Of a stretch of 40,595 nt of DNA, positions 3,160 to 34,966 are shown one piece after another (positions within the stretch are counted from its first letter, which is position 1; each line of letters begins with the position of its first letter). The position numbers and the translations under genes were made by a program. Source of the DNA: a virus (lineage: Duplodnaviria; Heunggongvirae; Uroviricota; Caudoviricetes). The DNA lies in the IMG/VR virus record IMGVR_UViG_2541047967_000005, positions 1 through 40,595 of that record, one strand, 5' to 3'. The notes beneath the pieces were generated by a model, which worked only from the letters and a program-made list of their open reading frames with translations, was not told the origin of the DNA and did no database searches.

Positions 3160-5622
3160 TCAATTCCCTGTTAATTGCAAAACTTGCTCTTCCAGCTTTT
3201 TAACCCTGCGTCTCATCATCGCAGATTCCAGAATCAGAGCCTCTTCATAACGGATACCGTAACATTCACCAGCCTCGACGGCTTCGCGTACCAGAACCTT
3301 TGTCTGTATAAGTGGGTAAACTCCTGCAGAATGCTCTTCTTCCGTCACATCCCTGTATTCTGCCGGGGTCTCATTCCACTTGTCATAACAGATAAATGCC
3401 AGTCGTGACACATCTATGCCTTCATTCTGAAATACACTGATAACATGCTGCGCAACTGCACCAAAGTGCCATCTTGCTCCGTCTTTACCTTTCACTTCGA
3501 TCCTGTCAAGGTACTGGTATGAAACCCATTCCACTCTTTCCCATGCGTCCAGTATTTTCTCATCAATAACCTCTGGAGCAGTCTTGAAACGCGCATCGGA
3601 CAGCACCGTAAACGCTGACTGGGTAAATCCCCCCGACCATGCACGACCAGCCAACCCAAGAGAATAAGTATTCGTTGTCGATGGTGTCATGGCTGAATCA
3701 GAAAACTGTATATATTCTGAATTTCCAGTAGATATTCGAATATTTCCATTTATTAGCGACATAGTGCCTTTAGTATTATCACTATTGAATAATTTCAATT
3801 GCGAACTTATACCGCCTCCCACAGCCAGAGATACATCGCCTTCAGCAAGCATTCTGAATTTATCTGCAGAAACAAGCGTCTGGTTAGCAAGGTTAAAATA
3901 TTTAACCCACCATTCAAAACGCCCTGACATAGTCCCAACGTACTGACCAAGCGCAGGGACGTGAACAACATTGCTATTTGTAGTGCCGTCTATACTGGAA
4001 ATACCAGTCACCGCTGATGCAGAACTCAGAATATTATTTCTGTCACCCGGATGTTTAATTTCAACAAAGTTCCTGATACACCCTTCCTCGAAGGTAACCA
4101 CGCCGGAAGAACTATACATGGGGAATATTGACGCATAATTACTGCGTGCAGCATCTAAGAAACGAATGGTTGTAGATGCCTGCAGATCTCCTGATTCATT
4201 TTTCCCATCACACCCAGTCATTAGAATATTACTGGCAATATTATTATTTCCCTGAACGGTGACGCCGTGCGCCTGCTTTGCGTCCGATTCAGAGTAATCA
4301 ACCAGCACATCCGAAATCAGGTTACCAGTCCCCTTGCCAACAACTACTGCGGCGTATTTTGGGTTGTTAGCCATTACACTGCTAATGATATTATTCGTTG
4401 GGGCAGTTTCCGTCTCAGTTCCATTGTAAACAACGTGCTGACACTCTTCACCAATAACATTGCTGACAATGTTATATTTTGCTGCTGTTTTAAGTTCCAC
4501 TGCACCAAACTGAGGATAATTTCTGGCTATCACACCATCAATTAGCGTATTTTGCGATGAATCAAAAAGCACACAACCTGCTTTTTTATTATTTGCGAAC
4601 CCTAAATACTCTCCTCTTATATCTCTAACAATGTAACCTGACGGAATACCATTATCCGGATAAGCGATCAAGCTAAATCCTGGTCCTCGCGTATTTGTAA
4701 ATCTGATATTTTTAACCGATACATCATGGCCACCTGAAAATGACACCTGGTGTCCCTGCACACTATCATCTGATTTATTTCCCATAATTGTTAGCGTACT
4801 AAGCATGCCACCATCGGGCATGTTAAAAACCAGATGATTACCATCTCTGTCATACTGTTTTATCGTTCCCCCACCTGTTCCGTACAAGCCACAACGTGAA
4901 AGAGAAACTAAAGATGTATTGAATACCCCTTCCGGAACAAAAACACTGCTAAACGAATGTAATGATTTTGTAAAAGCATCCTTGTTATCATTTAAGATTC
5001 CATTTTGAGCTCCAAAATCCTTAATGCTGACACCATCACGCATCTTATCCTGGAACGTTCTGTATACCGCTCCAGAACCATACTGAATAAACCAACCAAA
5101 ACCACCAATAACTCCGGCGATTGCAGCATCGACATAATTACGCATTGAGCGATTATTTACAGCGTCCTGCTCAAGTGATGGATCGGCAAGGTTAGATATT
5201 CTGTTTTGCTTTGCATCGTAATATTTTGCAAGCAAAGATGGTTTCATCAATGCACGTCTGAACCACCCAAAACATCGCTGGATCAGCATCGTCAGGTAGT
5301 CAAATGCATCCTCATGAACTTCGGGGAAAAATTTTCCCTGATTGCGAAGATCAGTCTCCTGCACCACATCAAGCACACGCTCTATCGTGATTCGCCAGCC
5401 AGCAGCAAGCGGCGACGGAAGAACCACTGCACCGCCACTATAAGTTCCCGCCCCTGTTACCGTATAACCAGCATCCAGCACTAGTTTTGTAACGTTACCG
5501 TTAAGGTCAGACACCTGAACAACCAGGTCGGATTTTTTGAAAATACGGAAGGTATACGGAAATGATGTCGTAACGCCGTTACCTGTGTATTCGTTGTGGT
5601 CAACTTCGGTTGAGACCGTCAT
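3160..5622 (-). CDS. Tailspike / tail fiber with T7 gp17-like N-terminal anchor, central beta-helix domain and C-terminal S74 intramolecular chaperone
   Basis: N-terminus (YTGNGVTTSFPYTF ... RISNLADPSLEQDAV) resembles T7-type tail fiber N-domains; C-terminal ~146 aa (SDARFKTAPEVIDEKILDAWERV ... HFGAVAQHV ... coiled-coil tail) matches the endosialidase-chaperone S74 pattern; RBS ggag upstream. Confidence 0.8.
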   Translation of the reverse strand: MTVSTEVDHNEYTGNGVTTSFPYTFRIFKKSDLVVQVSDLNGNVTKLVLDAGYTVTGAGTYSGGAVVLPSPLAAGWRITIERVLDVVQETDLRNQGKFFPEVHEDAFDYLTMLIQRCFGWFRRALMKPSLLAKYYDAKQNRISNLADPSLEQDAVNNRSMRNYVDAAIAGVIGGFGWFIQYGSGAVYRTFQDKMRDGVSIKDFGAQNGILNDNKDAFTKSLHSFSSVFVPEGVFNTSLVSLSRCGLYGTGGGTIKQYDRDGNHLVFNMPDGGMLSTLTIMGNKSDDSVQGHQVSFSGGHDVSVKNIRFTNTRGPGFSLIAYPDNGIPSGYIVRDIRGEYLGFANNKKAGCVLFDSSQNTLIDGVIARNYPQFGAVELKTAAKYNIVSNVIGEECQHVVYNGTETETAPTNNIISSVMANNPKYAAVVVGKGTGNLISDVLVDYSESDAKQAHGVTVQGNNNIASNILMTGCDGKNESGDLQASTTIRFLDAARSNYASIFPMYSSSGVVTFEEGCIRNFVEIKHPGDRNNILSSASAVTGISSIDGTTNSNVVHVPALGQYVGTMSGRFEWWVKYFNLANQTLVSADKFRMLAEGDVSLAVGGGISSQLKLFNSDNTKGTMSLINGNIRISTGNSEYIQFSDSAMTPSTTNTYSLGLAGRAWSGGFTQSAFTVLSDARFKTAPEVIDEKILDAWERVEWVSYQYLDRIEVKGKDGARWHFGAVAQHVISVFQNEGIDVSRLAFICYDKWNETPAEYRDVTEEEHSAGVYPLIQTKVLVREAVEAGECYGIRYEEALILESAMMRRRVKKLEEQVLQLTGN

Positions 5623-6076: not shown

Positions 6077-6212
6077 GATTTGAAATTACCAATAGGAGTG
6101 CTTATATTTACCTTTGCAGTAAATTTACATCGCACTCCTCTTGTGCCATAGTAATCGGGCACTGGCAAAATCCAGTGCCGGGATTGGCGTCCCGGGTTAC
6201 TAAGTGGCGCAT

Positions 6213-6235
6213 ACCACGCCAGACGTGGTTTTTTT
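6213..6235 (+). terminator. Rho-independent terminator inside the Bro1 leader
   Basis: ccacg ccaga cgtgg followed by seven T; a matching hairpin plus T-run sits at the mirrored position upstream of Bro2. Confidence 0.6.
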
Positions 6236-6391
6236 ATGCGTTAAGCACAGCTATATCCGAATTATGGTGGGCTGGGCAGGGGTCCGAAAGGACGCCGGTA
6301 CCACTTAGGCCGGTACGCCAACCTTGTCCAGTTCACCACCAGTAATTGGCGTTGCGGTGGTGATTAAAATCACTAAGTGGAGATAACCACC

Positions 6392-7231: not shown

Positions 7232-7558
7232 ATGACAAAACTTGGATTCGTGATGAGAGGTCCGGTAAGAAGCGGAACTCATGCAAAGCGTAGCAAGAGT
7301 CGTATTTTTACTGGTAAGGTTGTAGCACGTAAATCAGCTATTGGCTCGTTCAATAGTGAAAATGCGGCATTGCGCCATATTTTTATCAGCACAAAGCCAA
7401 GAGCATCCGCTGATGTGCATACAATGTCTATTCCTATCACAAAGAATATCAAGCGGATAAAAAAGCTCTCATCTGCAGAATCAAAAGAGATATCTTTCCG
7501 CCAGCTTAACTCATTAGAAACGCATATGAAGGAAGAGGAATTCGATGTTTTTGAGTGA
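7232..7558 (+). CDS. Basic 108-aa protein of unknown function; first gene of the low-GC two-gene cassette (candidate antitoxin/immunity partner)
   Basis: RBS ggag 7 nt upstream; Lys/Arg-rich N-terminus, acidic C-terminus (EEEFDVFE); AT-rich with AGA codons; 3' end overlaps the next gene by 14 nt. Confidence 0.5.
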   Translation: MTKLGFVMRGPVRSGTHAKRSKSRIFTGKVVARKSAIGSFNSENAALRHIFISTKPRASADVHTMSIPITKNIKRIKKLSSAESKEISFRQLNSLETHMKEEEFDVFE

Positions 7559-8057
7559 GTATAGCGGGAAGGTTATACCTACTGGTGAGTTTAAAACTGA
7601 TGACTTTCTGATTTCGCTAAAAGATGCTTTTAAACAACACTGGCGTCATGGTCATCATCCTGATCTGGGAAAAGATACTCTTTTTGAAAGACCAGACGAA
7701 GTATTAGGCTTCCATCTCAGAAAGGTTCATGTCAATATTGGTGAATATGCATCATATTCATACTCATGTACTGAACAGTGTTGGGATGAGTGGTCATATG
7801 GATTGATTGATGAACAAGGAAATTACAGGCCAAAACCAACCAGTAACGCATATCTCATATATGCAGTCAATGAAATAAGAGATGCAGCCTTACTAGCTTA
7901 TTGGGACCCGCCCGCACACACCAAAGCTAACGCAAAAGTTTGGATGGATTCCGTATTGAATTTCACAAAATTATTTCATGAACGAACGAATACAGCTCCA
8001 CTTAGTAGAAATGTTTATCCGTGGGATTATTCGTACAAATCCAAAAAGCCTGCATAG
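7545..8057 (+). CDS. 170-aa protein of unknown function; second gene of the cassette (candidate toxin/effector, possibly YafO-like)
   Basis: Strong RBS ggaagagga upstream of ATG 7545; translationally coupled to the upstream ORF; low GC; motifs (LFERPDEVLGFHL ... AYLIYAV ... ALLAYWDPPAH) loosely recall YafO-family toxins from memory, not verified. Confidence 0.5.
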   Translation: MFLSEYSGKVIPTGEFKTDDFLISLKDAFKQHWRHGHHPDLGKDTLFERPDEVLGFHLRKVHVNIGEYASYSYSCTEQCWDEWSYGLIDEQGNYRPKPTSNAYLIYAVNEIRDAALLAYWDPPAHTKANAKVWMDSVLNFTKLFHERTNTAPLSRNVYPWDYSYKSKKPA

Positions 8058-8323: not shown

Positions 8324-8335
8324 GTGACATGTCAC
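8324..8335. repeat. 12-bp palindrome GTGACATGTCAC (copy 1 of 3)
   Basis: Exact palindrome immediately next to the bidirectional terminator, in the unique segment between the inverted-repeat arms. Confidence 0.7.
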
Positions 8336-9059: not shown

Positions 9060-9325
9060 AGTGATCACCTTTGTAGTTAGGTTAATCACCACTACCGACG
9101 CCAATCGGTTGGTGGTGAACTGTGCAGGGTTGGCGTAACCGGCTACAAAGGACCCGGCGCACCTTTCGGTGCCCCCACACAGCCCACCATAGAATAGGTG
9201 CGCTTTACACATAAAAAAACCGCTTATGCGGCATATGTGCCTCTGTAGTAACCCAGGACGCCAATCCCGGCACTGGATTTTGCCAGTGCCTGATTACTAT
9301 GGCACAAGAGGAGTGCGATGTAAAT

Positions 9326-13191: not shown

Positions 13192-15888
13192 TCACGAAAA
13201 GTAATCTTTAAATTTGTCCATACGTTCGTTATGCAGGCGCTGATACTGCTCATCCAGAGCGCGATGCTTGTCTTTGAAGTTTCGTATAGCCTGTCCACGC
13301 ATAATTTCTTCCTGCTCGTGCTGCTCCCGTTCCTGCTGCATTTTCTTATAAGGTTCCCAATCTTCTAGTGATGGCCCCCAGCGCATCTGTCTTCCATGCT
13401 TGTCATAAAATAAATCATCCCTCGTAATACCATTTTTATCTTTTGTTCTGATCACAACTGAATAAAGCTTATCTCTCGGAGTTGATAAGTCAGGAACGAG
13501 AATCAACTCACCTCCAACCAGTGAGCGTGGCTTATTCAGTCCCAATGCACCAGCCTCAGTTGAAGGTCGGTTAAATGAAGGAGCCGGTTTATGTAAGTCA
13601 TCGCCATACATGATTTTTTCTTTTTCAGCCTTCCATTGCGCTGCAATCCAGCCTGACGGCCCATATTGATAAAGCGCCTCCGGTGCATATTTCATAAACT
13701 GTGCTTCCCCGTTGACCTCGCTGATACTCCAGGTGCGGGCTATCTGCTGGTTGGTCATTTGCTTCGCTACGTCAGCGTTACCACCAGCAAGGCGATAGTT
13801 AACGTCATACAGCATCTGATAGTCATTGCGAAAGAGCGCTGCTTCCGGCGTCTGGTCATCCGCAGACGGATCCCAGCGAAGCCAATGAGCCATATTGCTG
13901 ACAGCAGAATTGGCTGCGCTGTCACGCTCTTTTTTGTATTCTCTTGTACTCTGAACAGATGAGAGCTGCGCCCTTAGTGCATCTGTCTGGTTGTATGTCT
14001 TACTCTGCGCTTCCACAATAGCAGCATCAGAAGACATCCCTGCATCAGTTAGTTGCTTAACAGTCAGATAAAAACCCTGCATATCCTTCGGCATATTTCC
14101 AATAGATGCATTGTCTGTTTCATATAACCGACTAAACAGTTCCGCCGCATTTTTAACCACTTCCTGATTGCTGGATCGGGATACTGCTGAAAGCTGCGTG
14201 ATGACCTGCGAAGGCATTATGCCAGTCTGAGCCACAAGCCGAACAACCCCATCATGAGTGGAGGCATCATTAATACGAAAGTTCTGCGCCATTTCTGTGT
14301 AATCAGCAGCTTTCTGCATTGACTTGTTGCTTGGGTCTAATTTTTCACCTATTGTCAGCGCCTCATTGAATCTGCGTGAATCCCGTTGCGCCTGAATTGC
14401 TTCATTTGATCTCTGAAGCAATGCAGACAATTTTCCGTAAGCATCGAGTTTTAACGCATAGTGAGGATCGTTAACCTCAGGCTTCACTTTCTGCATTTCT
14501 TCTTGCTGCTGAGAAGGAGGCAAATACTGAATTGCCTGGAATATTCTCGCGTTATCAATCGCTATATCCAGTTGATTGATTATTTTATCTGCGTTTTTTC
14601 CATACCCCCTGATGATGGTCTCCTGAGCCGGTATATAATCTGGAACCTCACCGTTATATAGCTGGGCCATGGTGTTATTAATAGCTGGCTCAAGCTGTTC
14701 TAATATTAACTTCCTTTGCTTTTCTATCTGACTATTAGCAAGGTTATCTATTTGATAAATAGTCAGCGGATCCATTCCAGTTTTATTTTTTCTATATCGG
14801 GAAAGCCACCCTTGTGTTTCTGATGGAAGATTTCGGATAAATTCTTCTTCTGATATTTCACCTTTACGTGGATCACCGACTTTGGCGATCAGTTTATCCA
14901 CGTTACCCATCCCCCAGTTATATGCTGCTCCGGTCAATATTTCGGAACCGTACTTACCATACAGTTGATTTACATAGTCACTGGCGAGCATTTCATGCTG
15001 TTGTTCGTCCGTAGGGTTGTATTCAACGCCACGTTTGGCCGCCAGTTCTTTCCCTGTGCCCGGCATTAACTGGTATTTCCCCTGGGCCCTCTCTCCAGAA
15101 GATGTTTTCGGTCCTTCAAGAATACTACCATCAGGATTAAAATGACGATCACCTGATTCAACAAGGCGTATGGCACGCATGTCCATGCCTCCAGAATCAT
15201 TTTTCTGAAACTGACCATTTAACCATCCTTCCGGATTAGCAGCGGCATAATTCTTCGCCCGCATTTCTGTGGCACTGCGATCATCACTTTCTATTTCTTC
15301 CAGAATGCGTTCTTGTGACCATCCCCTGGCTGCTCCATATCTGGCAATGGCTACCATTCTGGAATTTCTGGCTAAAGTGGCAGTTTGCGGGTCATTCCAG
15401 GCATCCGCTTCATTTTGTATCCATAATTTTCTCGTTGCCTGATATTGCTCATCTTCATAGGCATTTGTCTGCCCTATCTCATGTCTGAGAACTCCAGTAC
15501 TGAACTGAATTTTCTGTGTTCTGGCTTGTTGCAAAAACATATTTCTTGCTGCTTCATCAGTCAATGAAGCAGCTATTTCTTCCACATCCTGATCAAATCC
15601 AGATATGTACTCTTGCCCCTTACCAATCGCATTTTTGCCTTGTTGTGCATAAAAACCGGTTTGAGGGTTATAAAGACGTTCATTGCTGCGCTGATTAAGC
15701 TGAAGGATGGCATCCTGAGACAATGCAACATTCGCTTTCTGCCTGGCTTCACCATATGCCACCGCATACTGATCTGCGACATTCGCCAGCACCTGACCTG
15801 CTTGAGGAACATCGAAGGTTTGAAAACCACCGGTTTGCACACCACGACTTTGCACCTGGCGTCCGGATGTAGTAGGAACAACAGGCAT
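13192..15888 (-). CDS. Internal virion protein with lytic transglycosylase (SLT) domain (898 aa)
   Basis: SLT motifs in residues ~225-330: catalytic-type VESG, GKYQLMPGTGKELA, AYNWGMGNV. Confidence 0.7.
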   Translation of the reverse strand: MPVVPTTSGRQVQSRGVQTGGFQTFDVPQAGQVLANVADQYAVAYGEARQKANVALSQDAILQLNQRSNERLYNPQTGFYAQQGKNAIGKGQEYISGFDQDVEEIAASLTDEAARNMFLQQARTQKIQFSTGVLRHEIGQTNAYEDEQYQATRKLWIQNEADAWNDPQTATLARNSRMVAIARYGAARGWSQERILEEIESDDRSATEMRAKNYAAANPEGWLNGQFQKNDSGGMDMRAIRLVESGDRHFNPDGSILEGPKTSSGERAQGKYQLMPGTGKELAAKRGVEYNPTDEQQHEMLASDYVNQLYGKYGSEILTGAAYNWGMGNVDKLIAKVGDPRKGEISEEEFIRNLPSETQGWLSRYRKNKTGMDPLTIYQIDNLANSQIEKQRKLILEQLEPAINNTMAQLYNGEVPDYIPAQETIIRGYGKNADKIINQLDIAIDNARIFQAIQYLPPSQQQEEMQKVKPEVNDPHYALKLDAYGKLSALLQRSNEAIQAQRDSRRFNEALTIGEKLDPSNKSMQKAADYTEMAQNFRINDASTHDGVVRLVAQTGIMPSQVITQLSAVSRSSNQEVVKNAAELFSRLYETDNASIGNMPKDMQGFYLTVKQLTDAGMSSDAAIVEAQSKTYNQTDALRAQLSSVQSTREYKKERDSAANSAVSNMAHWLRWDPSADDQTPEAALFRNDYQMLYDVNYRLAGGNADVAKQMTNQQIARTWSISEVNGEAQFMKYAPEALYQYGPSGWIAAQWKAEKEKIMYGDDLHKPAPSFNRPSTEAGALGLNKPRSLVGGELILVPDLSTPRDKLYSVVIRTKDKNGITRDDLFYDKHGRQMRWGPSLEDWEPYKKMQQEREQHEQEEIMRGQAIRNFKDKHRALDEQYQRLHNERMDKFKDYFS

Positions 15889-22901: not shown

Positions 22902-23198
22902 TCACTCCTGTTCACTGGCCTCTTTGGCCATCTTCAAATACTGTTCAGGGCAATGCGCCATAACGCGCTGAAACAGTTCCAGCGCCAGATTGCGTTGCCC
23001 CTCATTAAATGCCATTGCCATAGCGTCCATCGGTGAGATAGCGGAAAACACACGGCCTTTCTCCAGCACCGACCAGACAACGCGACGCCCCTGTTCACTG
23101 CTCATGACAAAGCAAATGTCATCAATTTCACGCTGTGCCATGTCACGTTGCTTACGGGCGTTTTCTTCTTTCAGTTGATCGTCTTCGTAATCTGTCAT
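22902..23198 (-). CDS. Small acidic head-assembly-associated protein (98 aa)
   Basis: ORF coupled to the portal stop and scaffold start. Confidence 0.4.
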   Translation of the reverse strand: MTDYEDDQLKEENARKQRDMAQREIDDICFVMSSEQGRRVVWSVLEKGRVFSAISPMDAMAMAFNEGQRNLALELFQRVMAHCPEQYLKMAKEASEQE

Positions 23199-24874
23199 TG
23201 TGATTGCCCACCCTGACCACTAACTGCATTCGCCATAGCTGACAAAACACTCGGATCCGAAGTTTTAGCTTCGCTTAGCGTCTTGGCACCCTGTGCCGCC
23301 GCCATCCCCATCGCCATCATTTGTTGCTGCTGTTGTTGCTGTGCCCGTTGCTGGCGAGCCTGCTCAACCTGTTCCTGCGGAACAATGACGGTTGGAGACA
23401 CTCCGGACATATCAGCGAATGCATCGATCGCCTGATCAACGTTGAGTTTGTCGAGAGCTTCTGGTTTCGCTTGCGCAAGTTGACCAATGAAGTTGACCGT
23501 AGACGCCAGACTGGACAGGCCGATAGACTTCTGCGCCTGAGCCATGACGGAAATGTATTCGACCTTCAGGGGCATACCTTCCATCACGTCAGGCGGTGGC
23601 GGCAGCATGTTTTTACGCACCATCATCGAGAAAGCGCGGTCAATGAGAGGATTAAGACATTCGTCGTTCAGACGCTCCAGAACCGGCCCCAACATCAGAA
23701 GTTTTTCTTCTTTCATTTCGATCACCGCTTCAACAGGCATCGAGCGGGTATTGATGTTCTGCAACATCATGAACAGATCGACAAAGTAGGCGCTGTTAAT
23801 GATTTGACGGGTGTCCTGAATGTCTGCCACCAAATCTGCTGTACTGGGGTTAACCAGATAAGCAGGCCTGAAACCATCCTGACCAGTAATCAGATCGATA
23901 TACGTGATGTCGCCAGGAAGAAGGGAGGCACGCTGATTCTTGAGGGAAGTCGGAGCAACCATCGGCGGATTGGTGGCTTTATCAATCAACTGCGACTTGC
24001 GCTTCTGGAGAAGCTGCAATGCCTTAACAGGTCCAAGCGCCAGCATACCCGGGCATGATGATCCATAAACATCTTCGCCGTTAACTTCCCAGCGCGGAGC
24101 CATAATTGGAAACTCATCGAATCCGGACTCACGCAACAACTTGTCGTTATCGCCACCAACCTCGTAATAAACCGATTTGAATGGCTTGTTCTTGCTATCC
24201 AGCTTCGATGTATCGCGGTCAATGTTCGGGTAAACCGAATGCATCACTTCAATCCACTTCTCGTAGGTTCCGCTTTCCCACATGCTTTTTACGGATTCGC
24301 TGACGTTATTTAGCCCGAACTCCTGAACAAGCTGACGAACAGTCATAGAGAACTTGCGAAAACAGGTGTCCACACTGCCACGAGGTGAGTTAGCCAGGTA
24401 GTAACTGCCTATCGGGAATGGCATTGTGCGAATGATGTCCTCGTCATCCTCCAGCACTGCCATTGCACCAGTGCTGTATGTGCCGAGGCTTCCGTATAAC
24501 TGCGGCAGCGACTGATAGAGATTCGACTTATTGAACATATCGTTCATGCGGTTCTGCACCGCCTCAAGCCACAACTTAACAGGGCCATAATCCATCATTT
24601 CAGGATCTGGCGTAGCCAGGCGAAACCACGGACGCGCGGGGCTTGTGATGCCTGACATCATGCCGCTGGCGAGAGTGCGCGCCGCCATAGTCCCGGTCGA
24701 ATCAATAATGCGTGTATTGCGTCGATCGTTACGGTTGACCTCAGAAGTCAGAAAGCGGGAACCACGCGGGTTGATGTAATCACTCAACTCGCGCCAGTGC
24801 GGCTCGAACGACTGACGCTCGCTTTCAAGTTGTGCGAACTGTTTGTTCAATCGCTCTTTAGTTGTTTCCGCCAT
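23195..24874 (-). CDS. Portal protein (559 aa)
   Basis: Size and position; RBS ggag upstream; C-terminal Gln/Ala-rich tail. Confidence 0.7.
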   Translation of the reverse strand: MAETTKERLNKQFAQLESERQSFEPHWRELSDYINPRGSRFLTSEVNRNDRRNTRIIDSTGTMAARTLASGMMSGITSPARPWFRLATPDPEMMDYGPVKLWLEAVQNRMNDMFNKSNLYQSLPQLYGSLGTYSTGAMAVLEDDEDIIRTMPFPIGSYYLANSPRGSVDTCFRKFSMTVRQLVQEFGLNNVSESVKSMWESGTYEKWIEVMHSVYPNIDRDTSKLDSKNKPFKSVYYEVGGDNDKLLRESGFDEFPIMAPRWEVNGEDVYGSSCPGMLALGPVKALQLLQKRKSQLIDKATNPPMVAPTSLKNQRASLLPGDITYIDLITGQDGFRPAYLVNPSTADLVADIQDTRQIINSAYFVDLFMMLQNINTRSMPVEAVIEMKEEKLLMLGPVLERLNDECLNPLIDRAFSMMVRKNMLPPPPDVMEGMPLKVEYISVMAQAQKSIGLSSLASTVNFIGQLAQAKPEALDKLNVDQAIDAFADMSGVSPTVIVPQEQVEQARQQRAQQQQQQQMMAMGMAAAQGAKTLSEAKTSDPSVLSAMANAVSGQGGQSQ

Positions 24875-24888
24875 TTCAATGACTCCGG

Positions 24889-25095
24889 TTACTGACCAAG
24901 CAGCGTTTTACCGCTGGTATTAGCAGTTGATGTGTCGCCCTGAGAACCGGTAAGCAGCGTAGAACTACGACCAGCAGCAGCGCGACGGCGACGAGTTTCT
25001 TCGTCGCGGGCATCAACAACGGCGGCATCCTGCTCCTGTGGTGCTGCCTGAACTTCTGGTGTTGCAGGCACTGATGGTGAGCTACCCATGCACAT
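24889..25095 (-). CDS. Small hydrophilic protein (68 aa) upstream of portal
   Basis: RBS ggag 8 nt upstream; its initiation region (cggagtcattgatatg) is nearly the same as the portal one (cggagtcattgaaatg). Confidence 0.4.
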   Translation of the reverse strand: MCMGSSPSVPATPEVQAAPQEQDAAVVDARDEETRRRRAAAGRSSTLLTGSQGDTSTANTSGKTLLGQ

Positions 25096-25163
25096 ATCAA
25101 TGACTCCGTACGCAATTAAATTATTACCAATTTAACCACATATGATTTATTTATCGTAGACAG

Positions 25164-25200
25164 TTGACATTTAACGCGCGAATTATTACCTTTCAGGTAA
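25164..25200 (+). promoter_or_regulatory. Candidate promoter (-35 TTGACA) with operator-like palindrome TTACC-N5-GGTAA
   Basis: ttgaca at 25164-25169; ttacctttcaggtaa at 25186-25200; lies in a 400-bp non-coding region upstream of the tRNA. Confidence 0.4.
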
Positions 25201-25522
25201 CCAAAGAGTTCATTCCGGTTACTAACCTGACTGGCTTGTCGTTAAATTGAACAGGTGGAGTGAGCTTTTATTTTGAGCAGTACGGCGTATGGCACATGCG
25301 CCGATAGCGGTCTGGATGCGTTTAAGGGGCACCCTCCCTGGCTGTGGCAAACGAACCAGGTAGCCGGAATGTGCAAGTCGAGCGGTTTTATTCCGCGCAC
25401 GGGGATTCACCATCCCGGCGATTCGGTGTGACGCCTCGGAAGAGACGAGGGTACAACGATGAGAGCATTTATGGAGCCGCGACAAAGTGTGGCGCCTTAA
25501 CAGGCTAAGTGCTCTCAGCGTT

Positions 25523-25599
25523 GTGGCATTAGCTCAGTTGGACAGAGCAACCGCCTTCTAAGCGGTTGGTCGCAGGTTCGAATCCTGCATGCCACGCCA
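25523..25599 (+). tRNA. tRNA-Arg (anticodon UCU), argU-like
   Basis: 77 nt folded by hand: 7-bp acceptor stem gtggcat/atgccac, D stem gctc/gagc, anticodon stem accgc/gcggt with loop cttctaa (TCT), T arm gcagg-ttcgaat-cctgc, 3' GCCA. Confidence 0.85.
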
Positions 25600-25642
25600 G
25601 AATCACGCCTAAGGACCGTGATGCCAGAAGTTCCAGGTGCTT

Positions 25643-25684
25643 GGCGGTGATGGTTTCCCTTGAAGGACTATCACCGCCCTTTTT
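25643..25684 (+). terminator. Hairpin plus T-run downstream of the tRNA
   Basis: 9-bp stem ggcggtgat / atcaccgcc with an 18-nt loop, then ctttttac. Confidence 0.45.
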
Positions 25685-25762
25685 ACAGCAGGACGCCATT
25701 GCGATGACTTCATGCTGTAAACCAGTACAGCCACGGAAGGCATAACTCATTGCTTCCAGTTC

Positions 25763-25786
25763 GCCCGGTTCGCCGGGCATTTTTTT
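25763..25786 (+). terminator. Strong rho-independent terminator immediately upstream of the moron RBS
   Basis: gcccgg ttcg ccgggc followed by seven T; ends 12 nt before ATG 25798. Confidence 0.6.
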
Positions 25787-25797
25787 AAGGTGAGATT

Positions 25798-26220
25798 ATG
25801 AAAACAGCCGACATGCTAGCTAAATATCTAAATGAATGGCCGTGCAAATATGTACGCATTGTTCAGGGTGATGACTCAATTTTTTATGGTGTTTTTGCAG
25901 GAAATGAAATGCTTTGTGAAGCAATTCCAGGTGAGCGACTTGCCGGGTTAACGCTTAGCGATGACCATGGAATAGGAGTTACTTGCCATGACTGGATTTC
26001 AGCGCAGAAAACTGAAATGGAAAAAGGCAATGTGTTTGATATTTCTCGCGCTGTATACGCCAAAGAAAAAAGTGATGATGATTACATGCGCGAAAACTTA
26101 TACAACATGAAGTTACAATGCCTGGCTGAAGTGCTTAGTAAAAGATCTTTACTTGATGTGGTTGGTGCTGAGCAGGACGCCAAGGCAATCAACGCCGCAT
26201 TCGATAAAATAACCTTCTAA
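25798..26220 (+). CDS. Moron protein of unknown function (140 aa), encoded opposite to the structural operon
   Basis: RBS aaggtgag; sits between terL and the portal region on the opposite strand, next to the tRNA-Arg; own downstream terminator. Confidence 0.55.
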   Translation: MKTADMLAKYLNEWPCKYVRIVQGDDSIFYGVFAGNEMLCEAIPGERLAGLTLSDDHGIGVTCHDWISAQKTEMEKGNVFDISRAVYAKEKSDDDYMRENLYNMKLQCLAEVLSKRSLLDVVGAEQDAKAINAAFDKITF

Positions 26221-26224
26221 CGCC

Positions 26225-26236
26225 GTGACATGTCAC
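26225..26236. repeat. 12-bp palindrome GTGACATGTCAC (copy 2 of 3)
   Basis: Exact palindrome 4 nt before the moron terminator hairpin, just beyond the terL stop. Confidence 0.7.
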
Positions 26237-26240
26237 AATC

Positions 26241-26265
26241 AGCCCGCCGATTCGCGGGCTTTTTT
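26241..26265 (+). terminator. Rho-independent terminator of the moron gene
   Basis: agcccgc cgattc gcgggct followed by ttttt; overlaps the terL stop codon. Confidence 0.6.
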
Positions 26266-27739
26266 ATGCAAAAGGATCATAGTCTGTGATGGCTTTGCCT
26301 TGCTGGTTCTGCTGCCCAGGAATTCGCAGACGCTTCGACACAGGGAAAGCAAACGTCAGCAGTAGCGCATCGCCTTTACCCGGCGAACGCCCAAGCCGCT
26401 CCTTGATATCTTCCTTCGGTTCGATAACGATTTTACCGTCCACACGAACTTTGTACTCTGCTGCCGACAGGTCGTCCGCTGTTTCCTGGTCATCCAGCAT
26501 GCCGCCGAGCCTCAGCCATGTCTTGCATGAGTTGAACATCTCCCCACGCTTGTTGAGCATCTGCGGGTCAGTAGACGCGCCACCGAACGGAACAAGTTGC
26601 CATGTACGACCCCAGCCGTCACCGATTGACTTCAAACCGGTTCCGTAACCGAAGTCGATGAACACCGCGTCAGCCTGATACTGGTCTTCAAAGTCAGCGA
26701 TACGCTTCGCCATAATCAGATCGTCGGTAGTCTTGTTGCCAGTCCACAGCACCTTACTGTGTAGCCCCTGCCGCAGGTATATCACAGCGTCATCAACGCC
26801 GGAGTATGCCGGGTCAACGCCGATTATCACCGGAGCATGTGCAACCTGCGCAGCGGTTACCACCCGTTTCATTGCCTCGTCAGTAAGACCGGTAGGGATA
26901 AACTGCAATTCAGATGCATCAGGGAATATGCCGCGCACACGGATTTTAACGAAGTCGCTATCTTCCCCGTAGTCATCAACCCATTTCTGCAACTGCTGTT
27001 TGTTAGTGCCTTCCACCGTCCGGCTGTCAATCTGCGCAGTTTTCCAGCGGTGTTTATATTTGCGGAAACATTCGCGGAAACGCCCGGTGTTACGTGTAGG
27101 GTTTCCGAACGCTACCCAGATAATCTCAGTGTCTTCGTCCGTAAGCGCACCCTCAGCAACTTCCCACACCAGATCCGCAATGTTCGACGCTTCATCGAAT
27201 ACCACGATGATGCGTTTGCGCTCGTTGTGTAGTCCGGCGAACGCCTCAGTGTTGTGCTCAGACCAGGGGATTGCGTCAGCTCGCCACCGCTTGTCGTGCC
27301 CAGGGTCATTGCTGTACATCGCGGTAGCGGTACAGGTAAACCAGTCTTTCGTGATAGCAAGGTTTGACCACTTGATAATTTCCGGCCAGGTCTTCGTTCG
27401 TAGCTGGTTGTCGGTGTTGGCGGTCACCACGACCTTACAATCCTCGCAAGTGGACATGCCCCAGTTGATCAGCATTGAGATGAATGCGGATTTACCAATA
27501 CCGTGACCAGAAGCACGTGCCAGCATAAGCGGCTGATATCGCGTCTCTGGATTCTGCAGGTGATCACGTATCTCTCGGAACGCATCAGCCTGCCACTGAC
27601 GTGGGCCGGTGGCATGTGCCAGTTCAGTCCCCTCTTCCCCCCATGGGAACGCATAGAGGGCATAGCCAAGCGGATCGTGAGTGAACCCTGCAATATCCTC
27701 GATTAACTGCTCTTCAGGAGATAACGCTGTATCTGTCAC
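26264..27739 (-). CDS. Terminase large subunit
   Basis: 491 aa; Walker A-like GHGIGKS in the N-terminal ATPase region and acidic nuclease-region motifs; GTG start overlapping the terS stop (GTGA). Confidence 0.75.
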   Translation of the reverse strand: MTDTALSPEEQLIEDIAGFTHDPLGYALYAFPWGEEGTELAHATGPRQWQADAFREIRDHLQNPETRYQPLMLARASGHGIGKSAFISMLINWGMSTCEDCKVVVTANTDNQLRTKTWPEIIKWSNLAITKDWFTCTATAMYSNDPGHDKRWRADAIPWSEHNTEAFAGLHNERKRIIVVFDEASNIADLVWEVAEGALTDEDTEIIWVAFGNPTRNTGRFRECFRKYKHRWKTAQIDSRTVEGTNKQQLQKWVDDYGEDSDFVKIRVRGIFPDASELQFIPTGLTDEAMKRVVTAAQVAHAPVIIGVDPAYSGVDDAVIYLRQGLHSKVLWTGNKTTDDLIMAKRIADFEDQYQADAVFIDFGYGTGLKSIGDGWGRTWQLVPFGGASTDPQMLNKRGEMFNSCKTWLRLGGMLDDQETADDLSAAEYKVRVDGKIVIEPKEDIKERLGRSPGKGDALLLTFAFPVSKRLRIPGQQNQQGKAITDYDPFA

Positions 27740-28335
27740 TGATTGCCATCCTGACGTTCTTTCAGTCTCTTCCTGGCTGCCGCTATGCGATCAGCAATTG
27801 TCACATTCACATTAACATCCAGGCGTTCTTTGAATGCGTTGACGTCGACGTGCTTACCAATCAGTTCGAGGTTCTTCACCTTGTCAGGCCATTTAATTTT
27901 TTTGAGGATGCCAACCAGCTCTTTCTCGTCTCCACGGCCTTCGAACATGTCGGCCAGTTCGAAACCTGTCAGGTACTGCCGCCAGACCTTAGGCCATTCC
28001 GAGACCGGCTTGATGCTCATATCGTCGTTGAGAATGTCAATCACGTCCATCTGGTCGATCTCCACCAGGCGCATGAGAACGTAATCAGCACTGACGCGCA
28101 TTCGTTTGTTGCGCTCCTCCATCAACTCGGCAATCCGTTTTTGAATGCGTTCATCGCGCATCATGACACTGGCTTTAACTGCCGCTGTATTTGGGGAGAA
28201 TCCTGCGTTAATCGCTGCCTGAGTCTGGTTTTCAGGCGTTTTGATGTATGACTGGCAATAAGCCTCCTGCATTGCTGTTAGTGGCTTAAATTGCGTTGAT
28301 TTGCGTTTATAGGTTTTAGGTTCAGCAGGCATCAT
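27736..28335 (-). CDS. Terminase small subunit
   Basis: Internal ATG (MMPAEPKTYKRK...) chosen because a terminator lies upstream inside the longer track ORF; basic DNA-binding N-terminus, helical C-terminus; coupled to terL. Confidence 0.6.
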   Translation of the reverse strand: MMPAEPKTYKRKSTQFKPLTAMQEAYCQSYIKTPENQTQAAINAGFSPNTAAVKASVMMRDERIQKRIAELMEERNKRMRVSADYVLMRLVEIDQMDVIDILNDDMSIKPVSEWPKVWRQYLTGFELADMFEGRGDEKELVGILKKIKWPDKVKNLELIGKHVDVNAFKERLDVNVNVTIADRIAAARKRLKERQDGNQ

Positions 28336-28376
28336 AACCACCGTGGTAATAGTTACCGTTGTGGTAATAGTACCAT

Positions 28377-28404
28377 GCAAAATAAAGCCGCCATAGTTGG
28401 CGGC
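28377..28404 (-). terminator. Rho-independent terminator between the Cys-rich gene and terS
   Basis: Minus strand: gccgcc aactat ggcggc followed by tttatttt. Confidence 0.6.
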
Positions 28405-28445
28405 AGTATTCAAAACCCATCAAATTCATCATGCATAACCCACTC

Positions 28446-28457
28446 GTGACATGTCAC
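28446..28457. repeat. 12-bp palindrome GTGACATGTCAC (copy 3 of 3)
   Basis: Exact palindrome overlapping the stop codon of the 28454-28795 gene, about 40 nt upstream of the terminator preceding terS. Confidence 0.7.
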
Positions 28458-34311: not shown

Positions 34312-34326
34312 TTACCTGTTGGGTAA
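34312..34326. promoter_or_regulatory. Operator-like palindrome TTACC-N5-GGTAA in the divergent immunity promoter region
   Basis: ttacctgttgggtaa between the Cro-like and repressor-like genes; a GGTAAC ... GTTACC pair lies just upstream (34274-34300). Confidence 0.5.
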
Positions 34327-34381: not shown

Positions 34382-34966
34382 ATGAAAAGTATCCAGGACG
34401 TCCGCAGGCAAAATCTCAACGACTTGATCGACCGTGAATTCAATGGTGTTCAGACGCGGATGGCAGAAAAACTTGGAACTCAGGCAAATCTGGTAAACCG
34501 CTGGGCTCTTGGCAAGAAGGTTATCGGCGACCAGGTTGCGCGAAAAATTGAAGCTGCCGCCAATAAACCCCGTAACTGGCTTGATATCGATCGCTCGCTT
34601 TCTCAGGAAGGTTTTCAGCCTGTCGGCCCAAGCGACATTGGTCAGCTGGCAGCTCACAACCTGGAACGCTGGATGAGTGAAAGCCGCGACCTTTCAACTC
34701 AGGGAAAACTTCACCGCGCATCCGGCGTCGCCCAGGTGACAATAAGCCGCCTGTTAAACAATGAGGTCAGCGTTTCCATTTCCACCCTGGAGAATGTTGC
34801 ATCTGCATTCGGGCGTCACGGATATGAACTACTGATTCATCCGCATGACCCTGCGACCATCAACTATGATCGCTCGCGCTACGCATTGTTACCCGAAACC
34901 GAGAAAGCAAAGATCGAAAGTTACATTGAATTTGTCATCAACCAGAACGAAAAAAACAAACAATAA
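34382..34966 (+). CDS. Prophage repressor-like protein with two HTH segments and no LexA-type peptidase domain
   Basis: 194 aa; HTH-like segments GVQTRMAEKLGTQANLVNRWALGKK and GVAQVTISRLLNNEV; no S24 autopeptidase motifs seen; divergent from the Cro-like gene. Confidence 0.5.
   Translation: MKSIQDVRRQNLNDLIDREFNGVQTRMAEKLGTQANLVNRWALGKKVIGDQVARKIEAAANKPRNWLDIDRSLSQEGFQPVGPSDIGQLAAHNLERWMSESRDLSTQGKLHRASGVAQVTISRLLNNEVSVSISTLENVASAFGRHGYELLIHPHDPATINYDRSRYALLPETEKAKIESYIEFVINQNEKNKQ

Follow-up and report, generated by a model that had tools for sequence, protein, structure and literature searches.

A conserved pseudoknotted RNA of about 240 nt (positions 25283-25523, plus strand) is the most notable feature of a short interval, 25096-26265, in the IMG/VR virus record IMGVR_UViG_2541047967_000005. 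The whole stretch of 40,595 nucleotides that we analyzed, referred to below as the window, is a Uetakevirus (phiV10/epsilon15-like) prophage. An earlier, sequence-only reading had described the interval as an insert consisting of a 400-bp leader, a tRNA-Arg(UCU) and a moron gene. The TTGACA hexamer and the operator that it placed in the leader are present, but the stretch is not a mere leader, since it harbors the RNA. This RNA is apparently undescribed and, as the possible first member of a structured RNA family, a strong candidate. As to its role, we favor, with a probability of only about 0.45, the view that the interval is one repressor-controlled early unit yielding a discrete trans-acting RNA and a tRNA, with the downstream open reading frame (ORF), its cargo, expressed by read-through.

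A structured RNA shared by three groups of temperate phages

The RNA comprises six helices and two pseudoknots in 170-240 nt. Its elements in the window are the following (A2 and A4 are alignments and R1 is a covariance model, all described below).

25283-25453, plus strand: conserved RNA core (covariation on A2 and A4; R1)
25283-90/25296-303, plus strand: helix P1, with a G-C to A-U swap in 24 sequences
25292-95/25371-74, plus strand: loop pairing, invariant, so that covariation neither supports nor refutes it
25307-08 and 25311-15 with 25356-60 and 25363-64, plus strand: helix P2
25382-85/25393-96, plus strand: helix P3, a variable hairpin
25402-06/25412-16, plus strand: helix P4
25408-11/25425-28, plus strand: pseudoknot formed by the P4 loop, C-G to A-U in 17 sequences
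25434-38/25446-50, plus strand: helix P5 with a conserved GAAGAGA loop
25454-69/25508-23, plus strand: P6, a 16-bp stem with compensatory changes across loci

The structure is strongly supported by covariation. In A2, a MAFFT alignment of 44 diverse copies made without structural information, 94.9% of the cells are paired under the proposed structure, compared with 23-45% when the partners are slid. Compensatory changes were found at 13 pairs (92 cells), and the covariation score was reached by none of 500 shuffles. R1 retrieved 101 copies. In the corresponding covariance model alignment (A4, 78 distinct sequences) 90.3% of the cells are paired as against 24-39% in the slid controls, and 17 pairs show compensatory change. 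The window copy itself matches R1 with 132 bits (E = 7e-35). Frequent G-U pairs assign the RNA to the plus strand; an RNA on the minus strand was rejected, as these pairs would turn into A-C. A coding explanation of the leader was rejected as well, because there is no conserved frame and the core lengths are not multiples of three. The single-stranded junctions are highly conserved. P6 closes a variable tip (34-170 nt across loci), and its last G is at the same time nucleotide 1 of the tRNA (25523).

Searches for a known counterpart returned nothing. No Rfam 15 family overlaps 25283-25522 on the plus strand even at E ≤ 10, the versions of the RNA from cdtI and SPN1S have no family match at E ≤ 1, and no description was found in the literature searched by sequence, phage name and keyword. 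The RNA is present in 1064 of the 5426 complete E. coli genomes, where PGAP annotates nothing at its location. In public records of the Uetakevirus unit the annotation does not go beyond the tRNA and a hypothetical protein; the structured RNA is never marked. Several databases instead put 'hypothetical proteins' across the RNA. Such calls over the RNA or tRNA region, namely the minus-strand PhiV10p04 (3434-3685 of L002) and mEp460_037 (1443-1811 of L008) and one in Ayreon, are probably spurious.

Homologous copies were collected in several ways. The interval as a whole is 98% identical to phage vB_EcoP_PAS61; over the first 700 bp the same level of identity is reached with phiV10, TL-2011b and the O157 typing phages, while the RNA segment 25270-25525 is matched at 100% identity in one E. 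coli chromosome. Further away, the ~245 nt preceding the tRNA show ~80% identity to unannotated DNA in the lambdoid phages cdtI, mEp460, Stx2c/Stx2a phages and Ayreon, and ~170 nt of this stretch match P1, P7 and D6. Copies in IMG/VR were collected with the 19-mer 25359-25377, giving at least 120 contigs and 109 distinct variants. A genome scan with a gapped 16-base pattern proved too unspecific: 6 of the 100 loci searched were real, all of them in Enterobacteriaceae.

The temperate enterobacterial phages in which the RNA occurs form three groups that are unrelated to one another. In Uetakeviruses it is followed on its 3' side either by the tRNA-Arg, found at the same offset in ~30 of 44 loci, or by a multi-hairpin domain closed by GUUGUGG/CCACAAC. 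In the lambdoid context (57 loci) it lies directly after the cI terminator, 25-60 nt past a promoter (TTGACA-16-CATAAT) whose spacer contains a TGTACC-N5-GRTACA operator. Since the same operator is found at oR (cdtI-type), this promoter is pL. Behind the lambdoid RNA come first a long-stem terminator and next the early-left operon (orf39, YfdQ and further genes), in which neither an N-like first gene nor a second promoter was found. In the P1-like context (16 loci) the core resides between trnI (tRNA-Ile CAU) and ban, in the C1-controlled ban operon; these copies lack both P6 and a terminator. Where a tRNA is present, it immediately adjoins the RNA, on the 3' side in Uetakeviruses and on the 5' side in P1. 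Outside the P1 group, nearly all copies have a sigma70-type promoter 25-240 nt upstream and a long-stem terminator after the 3' domain, the lambdoid ones included. Common to the three contexts is repressor-controlled early transcription, often with an adjoining tRNA.

A few copies have unusual arrangements. The lambdoid contig L030 carries two tandem cores on the minus strand (3997-4152 and 4804-4957), ~650 nt apart, the second of which lacks the exact 19-mer. In L107, P6 and the 3' domain are duplicated (~+290 to +480 from the motif). T-arm-like hairpins (GGTTCGATTCC, GGTTCAATTCC) are found in the P6 tips of SPN1S-type (1680-1790 of L011) and some other copies, which suggests embedded tRNA fragments. 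In P1 (L004, 269-370 and 826-2486) the ban operon, an early operon rich in RNA genes, has a dicF-like region and tRNAs Asn, Thr and Ile-CAU upstream of the RNA.

The adjoining tRNAs raise the question of whether the RNA might have no function by itself and serve just as a processing or stability leader for the tRNA. Rare-codon tRNAs indeed adjoin it in two contexts (Arg-UCU on the 3' side, Ile-CAU on the 5' side). However, about one-third of the Uetakevirus copies and all the lambdoid ones have no tRNA, and yet their core retains compensatory changes. With so many copies lacking a tRNA, the idea is largely refuted and was rejected as a general explanation; of all the alternatives discussed here we regard it as the least probable.

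Promoter, tRNA, terminators and cargo of the unit

The remaining features of the interval and the genes that flank it are listed below.

25164-25169, plus strand: -35 hexamer TTGACA, sigma70-type, read from the sequence
25186-25200, palindrome: repressor operator TTACCTTTCAGGTAA, overlapping the -10
25187-25192, plus strand: -10 hexamer TACCTT, separated by a 17-nt spacer from the -35 and lying inside the operator palindrome
25201-25282, plus strand: predicted 5' leader, from the transcription start to the RNA core, placed by the promoter position
25523-25599, plus strand: tRNA-Arg, anticodon UCU, encoded CCA (ARAGORN tct; Rfam RF00005, 73.3 bits)
25602-25622, plus strand: small hairpin AUCACG..CGUGAU, dG -5.9
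25643-25685, plus strand: intrinsic terminator T1 (stem 25643-25678), 14-bp stem, dG -22.8, CUUUUUA (U5 tail)
25686-25762, plus strand: spacer between T1 and T2, containing two hairpins and kept in every Uetakevirus variant examined
25763-25786, plus strand: T2, GCCCGG-UUCG-CCGGGC at 25763-25778, dG -12.7, followed by U7 at 25780-25786
25787-25794, plus strand: ribosome-binding site (RBS) AAGGTGAG
25798-26220, plus strand: cargo ORF of 140 codons, ATG start
26225-26236: 12-bp palindrome GTGACATGTCAC, between the cargo ORF and T3
26241-26265, plus strand: T3, after the cargo (hairpin 26241-26260), dG -13.7
23195-24874, minus strand: portal (PF12236)
24889-25095, minus strand: 68-aa gp3-like protein (phrog_831)
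26264-27739, minus strand: TerL (phrog_2)
27736-28413, minus strand: TerS (PF03592)

The motif TTGAC(A/C)-17-TACCTT precedes the RNA in nearly all Uetakevirus loci, and alignment A1 shows the -35 and the operator to be conserved across the genus while the spacer between them varies. The operator belongs to a dispersed set: TTACCN5GGTAA occurs 15 times in the window, compared with 0.58 expected. Pairs of sites stand on either side of a repressor-like gene (34382-34966), an arrangement that resembles oL/oR around cI, and the epsilon15 record labels the homologous site as 'repressor, lysogeny'. The sites spread over 5495-35100 (for example 5727, 7175, 9326, 25186, 28353, 31919 and 31981, with further ones at 34312, 35024 and 35086), and one of them falls within the TerS gene. 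By analogy with P1 C1, such dispersal suggests a regulon of many separate repressor-controlled units. Since the operator overlaps the promoter and further sites flank the repressor gene, the unit would be expressed early in the lytic cycle; it is probably silent in the lysogen and switched on early upon induction, unlike a moron expressed by the lysogen. The predicted leader is partly conserved among Uetakeviruses, and for the homologous sequence the epsilon15 record marks an RNase III site. Two pairs of IsrK and C4 antisense RNAs, at 6159-6343 (plus strand) and 9108-9289 (minus strand), were also found in the window (Rfam, 66-80 bits). Each pair is directly downstream of a repressor operator (5727 and 9326, respectively); they constitute two P1-immI-like modules in a single phage.

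The tRNA-Arg claimed by the sequence-only reading is genuine: ARAGORN calls it as tct, its only tRNA in the window, and the Rfam score of 73.3 bits compares with a gathering score of 29, with GCCA following the acceptor stem. The AGA enrichment expected for phage genes, including the cassette at 7232-8057, was borne out by codon counts. AGA accounts for 93 of 12,632 codons (7.4/1000, crude gene set), whereas the E. coli average is ~2/1000, and reaches 24-28/1000 in the cassette. The large ORFs 3160-5622 and 13192-15888 contain 13 and 15 AGA codons, while the portal, TerL and likely capsid genes have none. The enrichment in tail and accessory genes supports a decoding role for the tRNA; a part in evading anticodon nucleases is conceivable.

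Downstream of the tRNA, the same reading had listed a weak hairpin and a strong terminator next to the RBS. A small hairpin at 25602-25622 is kept in tRNA-bearing and tRNA-less variants alike; the terminator in front of the RBS is T2, whose U7 tract abuts it, a junction conserved whatever the cargo. What had not been listed as a terminator is T1, the strongest one of the region, which closes the RNA-tRNA module and whose GGCGGT..ACCGCC stem can be aligned between the window and cdtI. The T1-T2 spacer is conserved even in epsilon15, which has no tRNA and lacks most of the RNA; its only Rfam hit resembles RyhB and lies below the threshold (18 bits, E = 1.3). The ~100-nt segment consisting of the spacer and T2 (25686-25786; ~2620-2700 of epsilon15, L005) could be a separate small RNA. 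T3 comes after the palindrome and not before it, as had been stated, and its T-run overlaps the TerL stop codon. Taken alone, the plus-strand terminator scan did not exceed chance (4 found, 2.0 ± 1.4 in shuffles); the positions of T1, T2 and T3 are conserved across related phages. No minus-strand terminators were found in 24800-26600, and the late minus-strand transcript can therefore cross the interval.

The palindrome GTGACATGTCAC is present in three exact copies (8324-8335, 26225-26236 and 28446-28457) and one copy with a single mismatch (23135-23146), compared with 0.12 expected in the window. One copy is just upstream of TerS, beside the gene for a phrog_536 regulator. Both L047 and the variant L071, which is cargo-less, keep the copy before T3. 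The palindrome may be the binding site for a late regulator.

The 140-aa ORF does exist on the plus strand between the minus-strand terminase and portal genes (TerL on one side, the gp3-like gene and portal on the other), and together with the tRNA it is far beyond chance. Both are already known, ordinary features of phiV10/epsilon15-type phages. The view that the ORF has no recognizable family was wrong in a narrow sense: it matches phrog_4846 over its full length (residues 1-140 of 140, E = 7.7e-87; 111 homologs); no fold match was obtained. The protein is identical in PAS61. With a GC content of 41%, compared with 52-54% in the flanks, the ORF is a foreign, swappable cargo. The corresponding position in phiV10 and epsilon15 (phiV10 p03 and epsilon15 gp50 regions) is occupied by PF13876 (N4 gp49/Sf6 gp66), and other relatives have unrelated ORFs of other families behind the same T2-RBS junction. 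Apart from the cargo, these two units agree with that of the window in position, orientation, promoter/operator and the T2-RBS junction. Two variants, L071 with a remnant of 8 codons and L107 with T2 right against the TerL stop, have no cargo while keeping the RNA, T1 and T2.

The notion of an insert peculiar to this phage could not be maintained. The unit was found in the same place in 44 Uetakevirus loci, and the slot is kept genus-wide (phiV10, epsilon15, SPN1S, Tyrion, PAT1, BUCT711), with only the ORF exchanged. It is ancestral to the genus rather than a private insertion.

Does the ORF represent a moron in the sense of Hendrix and Juhala? It has an atypical composition, is present or absent among relatives, lies on the opposite strand between structural genes and is followed by a terminator. 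On the other hand, its upstream neighbor is T2 and not a promoter, no promoter-like sites were found between T1 and the ORF, the promoter of the unit is under an operator and the slot is ancestral. The operator over the -10 argues against moron-type expression from a repressed prophage and points to early-lytic expression instead.

Because the ORF is located behind terminators and has no promoter of its own, its expression needs read-through or antitermination. To this extent the antitermination-dependent cargo proposed earlier stands. The specific mechanism put forward, in which the 400 bp are a mere leader and the moron is expressed via a Q-like antiterminator as in pR'-tR'-tRNA-stx, we find improbable. 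Besides the terminators directly before the RBS of a promoterless ORF, it could draw on the IsrK and C4 RNAs in the window; IsrK has been linked to antiterminator control in Salmonella Gifsy-1. The Stx unit (tRNA genes ileZ-argN-argO) likewise combines rare-codon tRNAs, terminators and an accessory gene. The order, however, is the reverse of that in Stx: the window has promoter, RNA, tRNA, terminators and ORF, its promoter is early and repressor-controlled rather than late, and the cargo is no toxin. The 'leader' covaries strongly and occurs in phages without this tRNA or ORF. The gene before TerS is annotated as a transcriptional regulator (phrog_536) and not as a recognized Q; none of the ten early-region ORFs is a Q, and no Q/qut was identified, although the whole window was not searched for them. 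Overall, the earlier observation is confirmed and its interpretation partly supported.

Possible roles of the RNA

From the anatomy described above we infer a function for the RNA, together with its timing, processing, action in trans and the read-through into the cargo. Once the repressor has left its site at 25186-25200, transcription by E. coli RNA polymerase would start near 25199 and yield a leader of ~80 nt, the ~240-nt RNA (core 25283-25453 plus P6 to 25523) and the tRNA-Arg(UCU). Most transcripts would stop at T1, giving a primary RNA of ~490 nt. Cleavage at the 5' side of tRNAs is the established role of RNase P, and a cut at 25522/25523 would part the structured RNA from the tRNA. 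The RNA would thereby get defined ends because of the processing of the adjoining tRNA, while the tRNA would decode AGA in the tail and accessory genes that are rich in this codon. The structured RNA would be the primary, independently selected product: stable, discrete and early, it would most likely bind a protein or RNA partner in trans. Only polymerases passing both T1 and T2 would reach the 140-aa ORF, and the convergent late operon would be shielded by T1, T2 and T3 jointly. Promoter, RNA, 3' domain and terminator travel together as a module, and cargo-less variants keep the RNA and the tandem terminators, which argues that the RNA is selected for itself and not for the genes downstream.

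Phage RNAs of this general kind are known. GOLLD, ROOL and the T4 species 1 and 2 (rnaC, rnaD) are structured RNAs that adjoin tRNAs or are co-transcribed with them, and some of these stable RNAs have embedded tRNA-like pieces. The RNA described here is similar in its proximity to tRNAs and in the T-arm-like hairpins of some P6 tips. However, GOLLD and ROOL are far larger, there is no Rfam match and the hosts of the present RNA are Enterobacteriaceae; we do not claim homology.

Several points weigh against a discrete trans-acting product. Transcription start, 3' ends and processing are without exception predictions, and action in trans is argued by exclusion. Between pL and the whole early-left operon of lambdoid phages, where no other promoter was seen, stand the RNA and its terminator, and the RNA could act in cis on this terminator. 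A strong Shine-Dalgarno sequence follows T2 across cargo types, suggesting that read-through is designed and not incidental. In epsilon15 the RNA is reduced to about its first 70 nt and the tRNA is gone; the module is therefore dispensable for that phage and is accessory. Finally, the conservation of the 19-mer among the IMG/VR copies is by construction; copies derived by BLAST show it as well.

The strongest competitor is a cis-acting antiterminator analogous to HK022 put, which would fold on the nascent transcript and modify the polymerase so that it passes T1 and T2. The terminator that separates pL from the early-left genes would likewise be overcome in lambdoids, and the cargo would depend on the RNA. 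In HK022, putL has its place just downstream of pL (PMC9378689; HK639 annotation). The lambdoid copies of our RNA, though not the window copy, are likewise just past pL and ahead of a terminator in N-less phages: at 57 loci the RNA is the first to be transcribed from pL, with an N-less early-left operon (orf39/YfdQ) beyond the terminator. For phage LLS, which has an operon of the same type (yfbR/yfdQ/yfdP) and no N homolog, a put-like mechanism has in fact been suggested (PMC12315714). Moreover, the window ORF has a strong RBS behind two terminators and no promoter, and the RNA without exception runs in the direction of the genes after it. Homology to put, however, finds no support in either sequence or structure. 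The put element is ~70 nt long with two stem-loops, so that the present RNA, with its six helices and two pseudoknots, is three times its size; it is also found in non-lambdoid contexts and in one copy per phage. There is no sequence or covariance model similarity: R1 finds no match in HK022 or HK639, and the local alignment to the putL-like RNA in the HK639 pL leader scores within shuffles. In lambdoid early-left operons there are no further intrinsic terminators for ~5 kb, leaving little for processivity to act on. The terminator moves with the RNA as a module, and in cargo-less Uetakeviruses, which keep the RNA, the tandem terminators point at the late operon, and read-through there would be harmful. 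In view of the missing lambdoid terminators and the cargo-less variants we downgraded processive antitermination. Cis antitermination through the beta' zinc-binding domain, as with put, is by analogy just a candidate for this RNA, and we consider it distinctly less probable than the trans-acting RNA, both being reached by inference. That the RNA represents a new class of polymerase-modifying antiterminator, or some other RNA with direct biochemical activity, seems slightly less probable still.

A sensor is less probable than any of these possibilities, and than the Q-type mechanism. Here, a riboswitch-like or tRNA-sensing leader would tune passage through T1 by a ligand or by the charging state. 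Highly conserved single-stranded junctions and two pseudoknots are reminiscent of ligand-binding RNAs, and the terminator that nearly all non-P1 copies have downstream would suit such a device. The P1 copies, however, have no terminator. Elsewhere the core is separated from T1 by the tRNA or by a variable domain of 80-130 nt plus a hairpin, and there is no overlap between sensor and terminator of the kind seen between the aptamer and the expression platform of a riboswitch. Neither are the regulated genes consistent, as those downstream are unrelated among the three contexts, and no Rfam riboswitch matches.

Implications for temperate enterobacterial phages

Little changes with the tRNA and the cargo ORF, which are routine. 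In contrast, the RNA is large, well supported and present in much-studied phages (P1, Stx2-converting and other lambdoid phages, phiV10/epsilon15), yet it is absent from Rfam. If it did turn out to be a new antiterminator class, it would explain early-left expression in the N-less lambdoids cdtI, mEp460, Stx2c and ST64B/LLS-type phages, and in Uetakeviruses it would gate whatever cargo sits behind T1 and T2. Its placement at pL makes early gene expression in N-less lambdoids directly testable. Any link between the RNA and the control of early genes in temperate enterobacterial phages can be put to the test.

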